Below are positions 46,976-52,606 of a DNA stretch of 64,000 nt, piece by piece (the first letter of the stretch is position 1; each line of letters begins with the position of its first letter). The DNA lies in the sequence record NC_005066.1. One strand, written 5' to 3'. The stretch is from Escherichia phage RB49. The translations under genes were made by a program, and so were the position numbers. The notes under the pieces were generated by a model, which saw nothing but the letters and a program-made list of their open reading frames with translations, was not told the origin of the DNA and did no database searches.

Positions 46976-46984
46976 TAAGCGAAA

Positions 46985-47008
46985 GGCGGGGATAATCCCC
47001 GCCTTTTT
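46985..47008 (+). terminator. intrinsic terminator after gene 54
   Basis: hairpin GGCGGGGA-TAA-TCCCCGCC followed by TTTTT. Confidence 0.7.
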
Positions 47009-47492
47009 ATTTTGCTAAATCATTGCAATATTTTAGTGCCTTAGTTTGAAATTCTGCGCTGTTAAGTTCTTCATAACGGTCATAATCACCGTTTAATGCT
47101 GCCTTTCTTGCTTCTTGCTCTATCTGCATGTCAGACATGATAATACAGCGATCCCGCGCTTTCATCTTCTCAAGTTGTATAGACTCTTCTTTCTGCTTGC
47201 GCAATTCTTCTTGACGCTTCTTTTCTTCTTGTGCTTTCTCTTCCCGCGCTTCTTTGATTGCATCCTTGAACATCTGCGTTTGTGGTGCTAAACCAACTTT
47301 AACTCGATCTACGTCTCGACGTTCCATTTTAGAAATAAAGCATGATTCGATCTGATCATCACTTGCATATGCTGCTTTACATTCACGAAGCAAGAAAACC
47401 GGATCTGATTTAGCATTCATCATAGCTTCCATGTTGGCACAACCAGTAAGCATGAATACAGCCGCAAGACCAATCAGTTTAATCATTTTCAT
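47007..47492 (-). CDS. putative lipoprotein (signal peptide with LTGC lipobox, charged coiled-coil body)
   Basis: N-terminus MKMIKLIGLAAVFMLTGC; stop overlaps start of upstream ART gene. Confidence 0.6.
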   Translation of the reverse strand: MKMIKLIGLAAVFMLTGCANMEAMMNAKSDPVFLLRECKAAYASDDQIESCFISKMERRDVDRVKVGLAPQTQMFKDAIKEAREEKAQEEKKRQEELRKQKEESIQLEKMKARDRCIIMSDMQIEQEARKAALNGDYDRYEELNSAEFQTKALKYCNDLAK

Positions 47493-48313
47493 TTAGTCAC
47501 CTCACCGAAAATTGTAAATTGTCTACGATTCTCATCGCCGAAAGATTCTACTACGTCGTTTACCTTGACGCAAGTCCCGCGCGGTAAAATTACTTCACAT
47601 TCGCAAGGGTTCCATGCAATGGACCCAACAACAAAACCTTTATGATCTTTTACGTCAATTACCCATGATACATTACAAGAATGTTGCATCTTTCCGGTCA
47701 TTGATTCATATCGATTCTCACAATAAAGGCTAGTGCTGTTTGATAGCCATCCTCCAAAGATGATCGGTGTCATGCTGGTTGACACAAAGTTTTTAAAGGT
47801 AAATTCCTTATCTTCAATAATACGCTCTATTGTCTGAATGTCAAGATGTTGACCGCGATAAAGAGTACCGTTTAACTTTTCGGTTTTATCCATGACGCAA
47901 TCCATCAAATCAACAATCTCTGATATCTCATCGGTCATGTCTTCTTCCCCTAAGAGAGCACCATTTACCCATTCGTATTGCTCAGACACATAATCACAGA
48001 TTGCATTATATTCTGCTGGTGTTATGTTGTTATGTTTGTAATGTTTGAATACATTATCTCCAAAGTCTTCGGAGTGTACTTCATACATCACATTAATGAT
48101 TTTCTTGACAAATCCATAATCTTGTGTCTCACGCTCAAGGAAGCGGATAACCTTCACATAATCATCAAAGTTAATCTGATCGCTGATCATCTCAGTGATC
48201 ATGTAACCATTAATCCCCTCAATGTCATATGTTTCAATATAATTGTCCATACGTTCCATCATTGATTCGCGTGATTCTTCCGAAAGACGAAAATCCTGTA
48301 ATTTCTTGAACAT
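47489..48313 (-). CDS. ADP-ribosyltransferase, Alt-like short paralog
   Basis: R-S-E triad motifs LYRG, FVSTS, ECEVILPRG colinear with those of the 683 aa Alt; GGGAGG RBS. Confidence 0.7.
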   Translation of the reverse strand: MFKKLQDFRLSEESRESMMERMDNYIETYDIEGINGYMITEMISDQINFDDYVKVIRFLERETQDYGFVKKIINVMYEVHSEDFGDNVFKHYKHNNITPAEYNAICDYVSEQYEWVNGALLGEEDMTDEISEIVDLMDCVMDKTEKLNGTLYRGQHLDIQTIERIIEDKEFTFKNFVSTSMTPIIFGGWLSNSTSLYCENRYESMTGKMQHSCNVSWVIDVKDHKGFVVGSIAWNPCECEVILPRGTCVKVNDVVESFGDENRRQFTIFGEVTK

Positions 48314-48337
48314 TTTAAACCTCCCATATAACAGAAA

Positions 48338-48365
48338 ACGGGGCTAGTATAAAACTAGTCCCCGT
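48338..48365 (-). terminator. hairpin between alt and the Alt-like gene (minus strand)
   Basis: 10 bp bulged stem ACGGGGCTAG/CTAGTCCCCGT, U-rich tail on minus strand. Confidence 0.4.
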
Positions 48366-48390
48366 TTGAGTCAACCATTATTTCTTAAAA

Positions 48391-50442
48391 TTACATTTTA
48401 AATTTATCTGGCATTGCGTCTACAGATACCAGATCAGCGATAAGCTGACGTAGAGTTGCCTTATCTGCTTTCTTACGTTCGGTTTTAGCTTCGCTAATGA
48501 AGCTGGAGAAAGACAGGTCAGAAGCAGGTTTAACAACACCTTCACGGATGAATGCATCACCGTCCGCGATCATCTCGCCAGATTCTTGTAATGCTGCCAG
48601 TTCATTTTTGTTCATAATATGTGCCTCAATGTAATAAGTTTCTTGTGAATCCGTCGATGCCGTAGCACGAGTTACCGTATCAAAGGATAACACAACACCG
48701 CGAGGAAGTAAAATCTCGCATTCTTTGTAAGCAAATGCTTTGTTACCTACTGGCAAGACAGGGATGTTTTCCGCGCCAGCAATGGAGAAAGCAACATTGG
48801 CGCCACCTTCACCGCGAGAGCCAGCCATAGAATCAACACCAGCAACGGCACTAGCCACGTTTGCATTCCAGCCGCCAAAAATGTTAGGTGCAAGGGAAGT
48901 GCTCACATAGTTTTTAAAGTAAAACGCTTTTTGCTTACGTGCAGTTTCCCACATTTGCGACCGGAAGTCCATACCACGATACAGAATAGTACCCGGATCA
49001 AGTTTAACGCCATAGTTGGAGAAGGCATTATCCAGTGCATCGCACATCTTGACCAATTCTTCTGGATCTGATATGCCTTCAAACTCTTCCAGCTTGCGGT
49101 CGGTTAGGAAGTTGTTCATATTGATGTATGCTGCATCGGCATATTCGCTCAACACAAAACCTTCCGCGCCTGGCAGATCAAGATCAATATCTGCCATCAT
49201 TTCACCCATGTTGCTAGCAATTGCTTCAAACATACCGGAAGCAACATTACGTAGGGCATCGGTTTTAATCTGGGTGATATGACTACGCAGCATTTCAGCT
49301 TTTACATCTGCTGGCATAGACTGGTCTACTCGATCCATTGCCAGGGCGGTGATCTTGTTTTCGAATACTTCCTCGCTCATGATTTCTTTTAAGCGTTTGA
49401 CCGAGGCTGCGATAACTTCCGCAGACAACGGATCATATTGATCCTGAACTTTTACCAGTTCGCTTACTGCGTATTTTGCATCGGCTTCGCTTTCAAAAAT
49501 AGTACGCATGAAACCATAGCGAGTGATAATATCACTTGTCCAGTCATTCAGAGAACGGGCGGTTGAACGTTCTAAGGCTTGACGGTCAATCAGAGTATTA
49601 AACTGTTTCTTAGGTTCGGCTTCGGTGATATCTTCTTCCGGTTTAAGATTAATTTTTTCTGGATGATTCACATAGTCGCTGTTATAGGTCGCTTGAGTTT
49701 TCAGCATTTCTTCTTTAGTCAAACGAGATTTAGCCGCTACGCGTTGTTCTGCTTCCGCGTTTCGTTCTTCTTCTGACACAAGACTAGCCGCATACGCTTC
49801 ATCTTTAGTCAGAGATTCACCAGTAGCCTTAGATACCCAGCGATCACCTAAATCACTTTCTACTTTAGTGAACAAGGATTCATCAAGTTTAATCCCTTTA
49901 ATCTTATCAATCGCCATCCCGCGACGCTTGACAACAACTAAAGCGATCTTTTTGCTGGTCATTACTTCCTGCTGGAATACTTCAAACTTCGGTGTACGAC
50001 GCACCAAACGCTCTATAACGCGCTTAACCAGTTCGGTCTTACCTTTCATGCGGGATACGTTAAAACGGAACATAACAGCGTCTAATTGCGATTTACGGGC
50101 TGTTTCCATAACCACATCAAAAGCACTTGCCATGACTGCAATCGGGTTATCGCCTAGACCATTTTTAAGCTGTACAATACGACCGCTTTTGTTCATTTCG
50201 CACAGTACAACATGTGCGGTCTTGTCACCCATACGAATGATTTTAGGTGTTTTGTTGGTGAAGTTACAAAGACGGACAATCACATCTTTATCGCGTGTCT
50301 GTACTGCAAAAAGCTGTTTAGGATTCTGCTTAGGCTTTAAGCACTGTACCGGAGCAATACTGCCAAAGTTTTCTTCCTCTTCCGTCAACAGCCATTTCTC
50401 GAAAGATTCAATCATTAGATCGTCGATTTCTAAGTTAAACAT
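48391..50442 (-). CDS. alt: Alt ADP-ribosyltransferase (packaged host-takeover enzyme)
   Basis: 683 aa (T4 Alt 682 aa); motifs ILYRG, YVSTS, KECEILLPRG; position next to gene 54. Confidence 0.85.
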   Translation of the reverse strand: MFNLEIDDLMIESFEKWLLTEEEENFGSIAPVQCLKPKQNPKQLFAVQTRDKDVIVRLCNFTNKTPKIIRMGDKTAHVVLCEMNKSGRIVQLKNGLGDNPIAVMASAFDVVMETARKSQLDAVMFRFNVSRMKGKTELVKRVIERLVRRTPKFEVFQQEVMTSKKIALVVVKRRGMAIDKIKGIKLDESLFTKVESDLGDRWVSKATGESLTKDEAYAASLVSEEERNAEAEQRVAAKSRLTKEEMLKTQATYNSDYVNHPEKINLKPEEDITEAEPKKQFNTLIDRQALERSTARSLNDWTSDIITRYGFMRTIFESEADAKYAVSELVKVQDQYDPLSAEVIAASVKRLKEIMSEEVFENKITALAMDRVDQSMPADVKAEMLRSHITQIKTDALRNVASGMFEAIASNMGEMMADIDLDLPGAEGFVLSEYADAAYINMNNFLTDRKLEEFEGISDPEELVKMCDALDNAFSNYGVKLDPGTILYRGMDFRSQMWETARKQKAFYFKNYVSTSLAPNIFGGWNANVASAVAGVDSMAGSRGEGGANVAFSIAGAENIPVLPVGNKAFAYKECEILLPRGVVLSFDTVTRATASTDSQETYYIEAHIMNKNELAALQESGEMIADGDAFIREGVVKPASDLSFSSFISEAKTERKKADKATLRQLIADLVSVDAMPDKFKM

Positions 50443-50477
50443 TTTATATCCTCTAGTTGATAACCTATAAACCTATA

Positions 50478-50504
50478 TTTATGAAAAGGGGGCTTAACGC
50501 CCCC
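50478..50504 (-). terminator. intrinsic terminator (minus strand)
   Basis: hairpin GGGGGC-GTTAA-GCCCCC then TTTT on minus strand. Confidence 0.6.
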
Positions 50505-50508
50505 TTTA

Positions 50509-51040: not shown

Positions 51041-51559
51041 TTAGTTATTTTTTAATTGTTCATCTTGCAATAATGCAATCACATGCTGGCGATGTTCTTC
51101 CGATTGAGACACACCGAAAAAGTTTGTTTTGTAGAAATACTCTAATCGGTCTTCTCGTGTGCTCTCTTCCATCATGATCGCGGGTAGTCCGAGATTTCGG
51201 AAACGTCGCTTTTCTGCTGGCGTAAAATCACTGTAATACAACATAGAATCATCATTACAAGCAATGCTAAACTCATCCTTCATAAAGGAGAATATTGCGT
51301 TTAAACGCTGTTTACCGTCCACGATTTCGATCTCATAGCGAGAGCCATCATCAATCTTAGCCATTGCGATAGCACCAACCGGAAAATCATTAATCAGGTT
51401 TTCGATAAACATACGTTTGTTTTCGGTGTCCCATACTAAAGGACGCTGATAATCTGGGTTCATGTTGATATAGCCATCTTCTAACCATGCTTCATAAACA
51501 GAGATAACAAAGTTTTTAGTATTGGTATAGTAACGGCGTTTAGGCGTTAAACGGTTCAT
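51041..51559 (-). CDS. DUF262-like (ParB/GmrSD N-terminal domain-like) protein
   Basis: motifs NPDYQRPLVW and IVDGKQRL; start placed at Met 51559 with AGGAGA RBS (ORF track extends to 51595). Confidence 0.6.
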   Translation of the reverse strand: MNRLTPKRRYYTNTKNFVISVYEAWLEDGYINMNPDYQRPLVWDTENKRMFIENLINDFPVGAIAMAKIDDGSRYEIEIVDGKQRLNAIFSFMKDEFSIACNDDSMLYYSDFTPAEKRRFRNLGLPAIMMEESTREDRLEYFYKTNFFGVSQSEEHRQHVIALLQDEQLKNN

Positions 51560-51560
51560 G

Positions 51561-51890
51561 TTATAGTCTCCTGAATGGATCATCACGTAAATCAATATCT
51601 TTTAAGAACTCATCCCATGAATGGCGGATATTGTTCTTAATTCTCCAGATAAGAGCAGGGATTGAACGCTCTCCCATCTGGAAGTATGGATCATATGATC
51701 CGTATGCCCAATATGCTACTACAATTCCACAATCAGCGCAATAGTATTCTATTTCACTTGCTGGCGACCAAAGTCCATCAATATGATCGGTGATCTTGCT
51801 TTCGATGTTATGGCTATGACAATCAGGGCAACGGATGCAATGACCTTGTTTATCGTAATTTGACGTTAGCGAATACTTAAACAATCTCAT
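51561..51890 (-). CDS. zinc-ribbon protein
   Basis: CIRCPDCHSH ... YYCADCG cysteine pairs; 109 aa. Confidence 0.55.
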   Translation of the reverse strand: MRLFKYSLTSNYDKQGHCIRCPDCHSHNIESKITDHIDGLWSPASEIEYYCADCGIVVAYWAYGSYDPYFQMGERSIPALIWRIKNNIRHSWDEFLKDIDLRDDPFRRL

Positions 51891-52606
51891 TATAGATCCT
51901 TATTTGCTTCAAATACTGCCTTTGCGAATCCTCGCGGGGTAAGTGACCTGATAGTCTTTGTTTTCGTTCCTTTCCCGCCTAGCTTAGAATGCTGTTTACT
52001 GTACCCTTTATTAATCTGCAAAGGTTTCTTTTCTGGCATTATAAAGCCTTGTCCGGTCCATAAGCAAGTCTTTTTCGGGTACATATCACGGGCGGCAATA
52101 TACTCAGGAAAAGTAGGATGTTTATCATCTTCCGGCAAATAACCGCCATATTCCCACGGATGGAACATATAATCAGGCTTACGCCACATGCTAGAGATAA
52201 CGCTTACAGGATTCTCTATCATGTAGGGAACTCCTATCCATTCACCCAAATAAGCGGTTATTTTAGCTGCCCTTACATCATGAACTTGAATCAATGGTCC
52301 TTGTTCTAGTTTCTTTCGTTCAAAGTGCGCAGCGCCACTAACAGCTAAATTGGTGCACGGTGGGAATGCAAAGATAATATCCGGTTTCCCCCATTCAAGG
52401 TCCATTGCTCTTTCCAGCCAGTTCAAATCAATCCAGGTGTTTACATAGGTAATGTTTGGATGTTCAAATCTGGTATTATATTTTTTGTATGTACCGTGGT
52501 CGCCATCGTCAGCATTAAAGCAGATCACCTTATGACCCGCTTTAGCCCATTCTAACCCCATTATCCCCGACCCGTCAAAGTTGCAGAATATTAATTTTTG
52601 TTTCAT
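51890..52606 (-). CDS. C5-pyrimidine methyltransferase-like protein lacking a target-recognition domain
   Basis: motif I-like FDGSGIMGLEWAKAG, PC motif FAFPPCTNLAVSG, ENV-like YMIENPVSV; only 238 aa. Confidence 0.45.
   Translation of the reverse strand: MKQKLIFCNFDGSGIMGLEWAKAGHKVICFNADDGDHGTYKKYNTRFEHPNITYVNTWIDLNWLERAMDLEWGKPDIIFAFPPCTNLAVSGAAHFERKKLEQGPLIQVHDVRAAKITAYLGEWIGVPYMIENPVSVISSMWRKPDYMFHPWEYGGYLPEDDKHPTFPEYIAARDMYPKKTCLWTGQGFIMPEKKPLQINKGYSKQHSKLGGKGTKTKTIRSLTPRGFAKAVFEANKDL

Follow-up and report, generated by a model that had tools for sequence, protein, structure and literature searches.

Tandem Alt-family ADP-ribosyltransferase genes in the alt region of phage RB49 and their candidate late and early transcription units

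Introduction

In bacteriophage T4, the ADP-ribosyltransferase (ART) gene alt was measured as a late gene and the ARTs ModA and ModB as early proteins (PMC9697503). Tandem alt paralogs are common among T-even phages, and RB49ORF183c, 44RRORF188c and T4 alt.-1/alt.-2 were described as apparent paralogous duplications of the adjacent alt gene (Nolan et al., 2006; PMC1524935). Here, we analyze the alt region of Escherichia phage RB49 in a stretch of 64,000 nucleotides (nt) from sequence record NC_005066.1 (hereafter the window), in which alt is followed by a gene for a short stand-alone ART and by a lipoprotein gene (Table 1). We regard it as probable, though far from certain, that these genes form two transcription units, one giving a late, packaged Alt and the other an early, newly made short ART together with the lipoprotein, to each of which we assign a proposed role.

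The control elements of this phage group have also been described. The element called PeSL (promoter-early-stem-loop) was defined for phi1 and RB49, and promoter and terminator activity was demonstrated for copies other than the one discussed below (Arbiol et al., 2010; PMC2839356). The −35 form GTTGAC is that of the RB49 early-promoter consensus (PMC1524935). Position −13 of the late promoter is poorly conserved in most of the phages studied, and the late promoters of RB49 were described likewise (Nolan et al., 2006; PMC1524935). Interest in phage ARTs has been renewed by the RNAylation activity of ModB, the action of Alt on MazF and the ART-type anti-CRISPR proteins.

Results

The locus and what is already known of it

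Full-length matches to the region, at 95–99% DNA identity, are found in 57 GenBank phage records, and those of the 57 that were opened are classified as Krischvirus (the RB49/phi1/JSE group). The short ART, a protein of 274 amino acids (aa), is 100% identical to its RB49 and ECD7 counterparts. The locus is the alt region of Krischvirus, an RB49-like T4-type coliphage, and lies between the early hyperplastic region and the baseplate genes 54 and 48. Its three open reading frames (ORFs) are on the minus strand, and the gene order Alt, short ART, lipoprotein and convergent gp54 is found in every context recovered (loci L011, L014, L016, L017/18, L019 and L020), where Alt measures 660–683 aa, the short ART 264–282 aa and the lipoprotein 159–174 aa.

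The arrangement is therefore real and conserved, but it is already known, having been sequenced, annotated and published before: the trio is annotated in several GenBank records, W115 among them, and some list two ADP-ribosyltransferases and a putative lipoprotein. What we add is (i) the temporal split that the conserved promoter architecture implies, (ii) the recognition of the short ART as an old and conserved stand-alone catalytic module of the Alt type, which exists alongside a separate Mod-family gene, and (iii) the allelic exchange of the mature domain of the lipoprotein.

A full-length Alt and a stand-alone Alt-type catalytic module

Judging by its sequence, the 683-aa protein is the full-length orthologue of T4 Alt. 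It aligns with T4 Alt end to end (27% identity, expect value (E) 3e-61) and with PHROG 802 across residues 16–683 (E 7e-180), its match to PF03496 (ADPrib_exo_Tox; E 1.8e-9, 37.7 bits) lies above the curated cut-off of 23.4 bits, and a homologue that is 98.7% identical to it bears PF26846 (Tevenvirinae_ADPRT) in addition to PF03496. Both the N-terminal Tevenvirinae_ADPRT region and the conserved C-terminal tail, which ends in ...MPxKF, are present. By analogy with T4 Alt, the protein is probably packaged in the capsid. On a metagenomic T4-like contig (L013:2366-4386), alt is apparently split into ORFs of 356 and 316 aa that sit between gp48 and DNA ligase; the 316-aa ORF holds the ART domain and a C-terminal tail of the form ...LPEKF.

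The assignment of the short ART is far beyond chance because it matches phrog_15144, a dedicated family annotated “ADP-ribosyltransferase”, from residue 1 to residue 274 of 274 (E 2.6e-198). Its match to PF03496 has an E of 4.3e-16 and 59.3 bits. A sequence-only reading of this DNA, made from the letters and a list of ORFs, had called the two proteins tandem Alt-family paralogs with colinear R-S-E motifs, and both parts of this claim are borne out. In Alt, the motifs are LYRG with Y488-R489-G, S514-T-S and E574-C-E576-ILLPRG, and in the short ART they are LYRG with Y152-R153-G, S178-T-S and E238-C-E240-VILPRG; in both, they line up exactly with those of T4 Alt and of the two T2 Alt copies. The same reading named a loss of catalytic residues on careful alignment as the finding that would speak against it, and all these residues are kept in both proteins. 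Furthermore, the motifs are invariant in an alignment of the short ART with five orthologue clusters and two Alt-like proteins (24–83% identity to the short ART), and R153, the STS segment and both glutamates are also kept in a second alignment set that extends down to 27% identity. In the R-S-E toxin class, the ExE motif goes with arginine specificity, and by analogy the short ART is probably arginine-specific.

The short protein was also said to lack the long N-terminal region of Alt, which holds: about 330–400 residues are missing. It covers positions 330–602 of the 674 positions of the PHROG 802 profile and stops before the tail, so that the C-terminal ~70 residues with the ...MPxKF end, on which the sequence-only reading was silent, are missing together with the N-terminal half. 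What is left folds, in an AlphaFold model (pLDDT 80, pTM 0.77), into a complete C3-like transferase that includes the N-terminal helices. A Foldseek search of the PDB with this model returned Vis, Certhrax, C3bot and iota/CDTa (E 1e-10 to 1e-8 over ~215–225 alignment columns; for the first three, E 1e-10 to 1e-9 with a Foldseek probability of 1.00), and a PDB sequence search gave weak ART matches only.

A late-type promoter box precedes alt and a PeSL precedes the short gene

The region upstream of alt is laid out as in T4, with a terminator, the box xATAAATA and then ACTAGAGGAT. Equivalent late-type boxes stand at the same place in L011 (AATAAATA), L017 (TCTAAATA) and T4 (TATAAATA). The exact form TATAAATA occurs nine times in the window on the structural-gene strand, and the coding strand of the minus-strand early region (47–64 kb) contains only two ATAAATA cores, one of which is the alt box. 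The gene is thus likely to be read, as in T4, from a late-type promoter that follows a terminator.

The 77-nt spacer between alt and the short ART gene consists, on the minus strand, of an AT-rich stretch, GGTTGACT, a 17-nt spacer, TATACT, GGGAGG and the ATG. The −10 box is overlapped by a hairpin, CGGGG(A)CTAGT-TTTAT-ACTAGCCCCG, which folds at −19 kcal/mol (z = −4.2); the T-run TTTTCTGTT comes next, and then the Shine-Dalgarno sequence GGGAGG. In its sequence features, this cassette is a PeSL, and its −35 form, GTTGAC, agrees with the RB49 early-promoter consensus. Inspection of the spacer sequence revealed no TATAAATA-like box ahead of the short gene.

The cassette is kept in all five diverged lineages recovered, namely the window (together with L014 and L016), L011, L017, L019 and L020. 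Across them, the promoter boxes and the Shine-Dalgarno sequence are unchanged, whereas the stem sequences differ: the arms read GGGGACTAG/CTAGCCCC in the window, GGGGATCAG/CTGTCCCC in L011 and GGAGGCATC/GATGTCTCC in L020, and L017 has an unrelated stem of 16 base pairs. As the position of the bulge shifts between lineages, the folds were computed sequence by sequence; compared to shuffled controls, the lineage hairpins have z = −3.8 to −7.7. At the nucleotide level, the cassette is 84% identical to that of L011 as against 65–73% for the flanking coding sequence. From this architecture, we infer that the short ART and lipoprotein genes constitute an early unit that is shielded from the late transcription of alt.

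Two further observations concern PeSLs. The automatic gene call for the short ART of L020 starts 36 nt too early, within the cassette (L020:1530-1566), the true ATG with its conserved Shine-Dalgarno sequence being at 1566. Six near-identical canonical PeSLs of the TTGACAGGGGATCACCGATCCCCTATAAT type are present on the minus strand further along the early region of the window (51033-51005, 53165-53137, 53409-53381, 57736-57708, 58881-58853 and 59294-59266); they are repeated promoter-terminator cassettes of the kind that Arbiol et al. (2010) described.

The short gene is old

The short ART aligns with the adjacent Alt across no more than 109 aa, at 37% identity (E 1e-16), and with the second Alt of T2 across 194 aa, at 32% (E 1e-21). 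A recent tandem duplication was considered and rejected: the short ART is no closer to its neighbor than to T4 Alt, and the split predates the radiation of the group. The short ART family is very small: six clusters at 90% identity, which are 44–99% identical to the query, came out of a search of 5.8 billion proteins, and three more orthologues were recovered via the lipoprotein contexts. A neighbor-joining tree of ART catalytic domains groups the short ARTs in a clade with 67% bootstrap support and the RB49-like Alts in a clade of their own with 99%; the node that joins the two clades has only 40% support. L017 is the first to branch in both clades; the duplication (or acquisition) is therefore older than the RB49-like radiation, and the two ART genes have been passed on together ever since.

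Elsewhere in the T4 group, T4 alt.-1/alt.-2 (L004:4817-5202) match residues 1–116 of the second Alt of T2 at 96% identity, which marks them as the truncated remains of a second alt gene.

RB49 has a separate Mod-family gene

The sequence-only reading allowed for the short ORF being ModA/ModB-like, and it turns out to be of the Alt type instead. T4 ModA and ModB match PHROG 832, whereas the short ART matches PHROG 15144, 802, 26651, 9935 and 595 but not 832; T4 ModA and ModB also align poorly with the Alt-family motifs. Homology of the short ART to ModA/ModB beyond the superfamily was rejected on these two counts. A search for Mod-family genes that covered a complete RB49 genome (loci L007–L010) identified a separate ORF, found in L008/L009, at positions 86698-87246 on the minus strand of the rb49 record OZ035808.1, outside the window. 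It matches PHROG 832 (E 1e-20), is probably 167 aa long with the start MQFTPEEL, and carries LYRG and ERE motifs. The ORF next to it we take to be T4 gene 56-like; in T4, modA and modB are located near gene 56. RB49 thus has three ARTs (Alt, the short Alt-type enzyme and one Mod-type enzyme), to be compared with Alt, ModA and ModB of T4.

The lipoprotein and the exchange of its mature part

The sequence-only reading placed a translationally coupled lipoprotein gene directly downstream of the short gene, and this too is confirmed: the two genes overlap by 4 nt, the ATG of the lipoprotein gene overlapping the ART stop codon in ATGA, with a GAGG Shine-Dalgarno sequence upstream. The N-terminus, MKMIKLIGLAAVFMLTGC, is a signal peptide followed by the lipobox L-T-G-C with Cys18. 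The lipobox fits the pattern [LVI][ASTVI][GAS]C, and 14 homologues all have L15, T16, G17 and C18. Cysteines 38, 51, 116 and 156 are likewise invariant in the same number of homologues and could form disulfide bonds. The residue at position +2 after the lipobox cysteine is an alanine. In E. coli, alanine at this position predicts sorting to the outer membrane, and the lipobox and the +2 alanine together predict lipidation and outer-membrane sorting of the protein.

The mature part was modeled as all-helical with a 62-residue helix (pLDDT 88.6, pTM 0.55). Searches of Pfam, NCBIfam and PHROG returned nothing beyond signal-peptide noise, and a Foldseek search of the PDB with the model gave no match with an E below 2. 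A profile of the mature part compared to 1.84 billion representative proteins gave only 11 matches: one tandem-repeat artefact (P0054), one 103-aa fragment and the rest of 155–174 aa. The lipobox is present in all five of the matches that were read. In every context looked up, the homologues adjoin T4-type phage genes only, and in every genomic context recovered, the lipoprotein gene overlaps or abuts the ART gene. Among sequenced phages, the lipoprotein is found in 57 records, the same count as the DNA matches of the region.

The comparison of the window with L016 shows what is variable here. Between the two, identity is 98% for Alt and 97% for the short ART but only 33% for the lipoprotein. 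The DNA homology breaks off at window position 47434, just past the codon of the lipobox cysteine, and is restored from 47023, 16 nt short of the stop codon; the divergent segment is L016:3583-4024. The exchange between near-identical phages is confined to the mature part of the lipoprotein, which is swapped as an allelic cassette. A comparably divergent allele is present in 8 of the 57 GenBank Krischvirus genomes, with 28–31% identity to the window protein. In a crude comparison that used identities to one reference tip, the allele class showed no association with the gp37 tail-fiber tip: both classes occur in the same gp37-tip identity bands, and ELT3 (allele A) equals 011D4/E26 (divergent allele).

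Other features of the window

The coordinates of the features are collected in Table 1. The plus strand carries the genes for gp54 and gp48, the latter being the baseplate tail-tube cap protein (PF11091, E 5e-126). An Rfam scan of the region gave no match.

Two minus-strand ORFs of the early region deserve mention. One, of 184 aa (51041-51595), lies directly behind a PeSL with a 12/12 sigma-70 match and contains an N-terminal DUF262/GmrSD_N domain only (PF03235, E 6e-20); it appears to be a shortened relative of a restriction-enzyme domain. The other, of 238 aa (51890-52606), had no Pfam match and contains the segment FPPCTNLAVSG, which may resemble a catalytic motif of DNA methyltransferases.

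Table 1 Features of the RB49 alt region (positions in the window)
Feature	Coordinates	Strand	Details
Full-length Alt ADP-ribosyltransferase (alt), 683 aa	48391..50442	-	PHROG 802, PF03496; R489, S514-T-S, E574/E576
Short stand-alone Alt-type ART, 274 aa (RB49ORF183c family)	47489..48313	-	PF03496, PHROG 15144; R153, S178-T-S, E238/E240
Lipoprotein gene, 161 aa	47007..47492	-	signal peptide, lipobox LTGC, Cys18 codon 47441-47439; PHROG 16112, function-unannotated
PeSL-type cassette	48320..48390	-	AT-rich stretch, -35 TTGACT (48374-48369), -10 TATACT (48351-48346), hairpin 48364-48339, GGGAGG 48325-48320
Late-promoter-like box CATAAATA	50476..50483	-	7/8 of T4 TATAAATA; ~35 nt before alt ATG; putative function
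Hairpin terminator AAAGGGGGC-GTTAA-GCCCCCTTT	50485..50507	-	ends upstream early ORF, directly 5′ of alt promoter; fold -16.8 kcal/mol, z = -3.3
Shared hairpin terminator	46981..47007	.	fold -19.6 kcal/mol, z = -4.4; serves ART-lipoprotein unit (-) and convergent gene 54 (+)

Discussion

We propose the following model for the alt region of RB49. The alt gene would be transcribed from its late-type promoter behind the terminator, as in T4, and Alt would be built into the prohead and injected with the DNA, whereupon it would ADP-ribosylate arginines of the RNA polymerase alpha subunit and of other host proteins; these last steps are suggested by homology with T4 Alt. The PeSL, a sigma-70 promoter interwoven with a terminator hairpin, would start the early unit. 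The short ART is most likely synthesized de novo within minutes of infection and not packaged, because it is PeSL-driven and lacks both the Tevenvirinae_ADPRT region and the C-terminal tail. It would thus combine Mod-like timing with an Alt-type catalytic core that is probably arginine-specific. The lipoprotein, translationally coupled to it and predicted to be sorted to the outer membrane, may act at the envelope, for instance in superinfection exclusion, which is our best, weakly supported guess and is drawn from analogy. The gene structures, family membership, catalytic residues, regulatory elements, gene order and age of the duplication, on which this model builds, are observed.

Other explanations of the short ORF were weighed against this model. 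It could be a functional stand-in for one of the T4 Mod enzymes, which early in infection might finish modifying RNA polymerase alpha or might act on translation factors. This is compatible with our model, which it would refine; the single Mod-family ORF of the RB49 genome and the early-type promoter of the short gene speak for it. However, beyond the shared superfamily, the short ART has no sequence relationship to ModA or ModB, and the equal number of ART genes in the two phages may be a coincidence, so we consider the idea doubtful. We hold it to be unlikely that the short ART is instead a packaged and injected virion protein like the second full-length Alt of T2. For this, it would use a short N-terminal targeting/cleavage signal and late read-through from alt. 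The gene does lie directly downstream of a late gene, and in T2 and RB51 two full-length alt genes stand 3 nt apart and share the N-terminus MELITELFD. Furthermore, the N-terminus of the short ART, MFKKLQDFRLSE, which includes L-x-E, loosely resembles the T4 capsid-targeting sequence MKTYQEFIAE (PMC8442874). Among 927 RB49 ORFs, however, the short ART comes only 11th by this likeness, which its orthologues lack (they score at the 37–94% level of background), and a capsid-targeting signal was rejected as evidence for these reasons. Packaging is unlikely, to judge from the sequence, because in all lineages a conserved terminator hairpin and a sigma-70 promoter of its own separate the short gene from alt, and because neither the N-terminal domain nor the conserved ...MPxKF tail, the two non-catalytic parts of Alt, is retained. 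The sequence-only reading had suggested that the short protein may not be packaged in the capsid, and its early-type promoter and the hairpin terminator between it and alt lend this suggestion indirect support.

The remaining two alternatives concern the pair of genes and the very existence of a function. If the ART and the lipoprotein were a functionally coupled pair, such as a toxin with its immunity protein or an effector with its export helper, the overlap of their genes and their joint inheritance in every lineage found would be explained. Overlapping genes are ordinary in T4-type genomes, though, and the ART has no signal peptide while the lipoprotein has both a signal peptide and a lipobox, so different compartments are expected for the two. 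Moreover, exchange of the mature lipoprotein for an allele of 33% identity is seen next to an ART that is still 97% identical, which speaks against a close fit between the two proteins; we consider such coupling very improbable. We give hardly any credence to the notion that the short ORF is a decaying, functionless remnant of a tandem alt duplication. Such remnants do exist, T4 alt.-1/alt.-2 being truly one, but the ORF is intact in 57 of 57 phage genomes and in every metagenomic lineage, is preceded by a promoter and a Shine-Dalgarno sequence of its own and is predicted to adopt a complete ART fold. Its catalytic residues are invariant down to 24–27% identity, and this invariance throughout excludes decay.

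Several points nevertheless weigh against the two-unit model. Expression timing, packaging status, targets and the role of the lipoprotein are all deduced from sequence. The alt promoter box reaches only 7/8 of the consensus, with a C at −13. The hairpin may leak, in which case late read-through into the short gene is possible. As the T4 internal proteins demonstrate, packaging may require no more than a very short signal at the N-terminus, and the N-terminus of the short ART resembles such a signal faintly, though not significantly. The case for an envelope role of the lipoprotein is one of analogy only, and a rough check gave no sign of a link to the tail-fiber tip.

A more far-reaching proposal, which we offer tentatively and do not ourselves expect to hold, is that the PeSL-driven ART and lipoprotein constitute a clade-wide early module with two independent jobs: a third ADP-ribosylation specificity and a fast-swapping envelope factor. 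If so, the specificity of the short ART would be distinct in time and target from those of both Alt and Mod, and the lipoprotein would, for example, serve superinfection exclusion or guard against a host function located in the periplasm or outer membrane, with its mature domain exchanged as an allelic cassette and its signal peptide kept. The genes being known and annotated, current understanding is unchanged by our analysis. Krischvirus does, however, offer a natural experiment, as the Alt-type core occurs in it once in a 683-aa form that is probably packaged and once free with an early-type promoter. A comparison of the two could reveal the roles of the non-catalytic parts of Alt in packaging, ejection and target choice, as well as the effect of timing on targets. 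The swapped lipoprotein alleles add a new, though minor, clue to envelope-level conflict among T4-type phages.

Comparison with known systems

The lipoprotein has counterparts of a general kind in T5 Llp and T1/phi80 Cor, phage early lipoproteins that act at the envelope. Like the RB49 protein, these are small lipobox proteins of lytic phages that are probably made early; profile, family and PDB fold searches detected no sequence or fold similarity between them and the lipoprotein described here.

The cassette ahead of the short gene has the AT-rich stretch, the sigma-70 boxes, the G-run/C-run hairpin over the −10 box and the Shine-Dalgarno sequence of the PeSLs of Arbiol et al. (2010), and it fits one subclass described there; the copies that were tested experimentally were others.

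The short ART itself has the fold and the catalytic triad of the C3-like, Vis and iota-Ia R-S-E toxins (PF03496), to which it is 15–19% identical. Those toxins are secreted by bacteria and have eukaryotic targets, and C3 carries QxE (asparagine) in place of the arginine-type ExE of the short ART. T4 ModA and ModB are small (~200 aa), early and non-packaged R-S-E ADP-ribosyltransferases, and the short ART probably shares their timing and their free cytoplasmic state. They belong to another family, however, and the RNAylation activity of ModB should not be assumed for the short ART.

The 683-aa Alt differs from T4 Alt in sequence and agrees with it in length, in position (from the early region to genes 54/48), in the terminator and late-box layout upstream, in the R-S-E motifs and in an ARTT segment of the EVILPRG type. 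The short ART has only the catalytic module in common with T4 Alt (31% identity over 181 aa, E 1e-23): the first ~330–400 and last ~70 residues are missing, and the gene has its own early-type promoter.

A second Alt-family gene directly downstream of alt is a feature that Krischvirus shares with T2 and RB51 (alt.-2), with T4 (the remnant alt.-1/alt.-2) and with 44RR (44RRORF187c/188c). The second copy of T2 is of full length (685 aa) and is probably co-expressed with the first and packaged, because the gap of 3 nt holds no promoter and the N-terminus is the same as in Alt. The second copy of Krischvirus, in contrast, consists of the catalytic module only and is predicted to be transcriptionally insulated.

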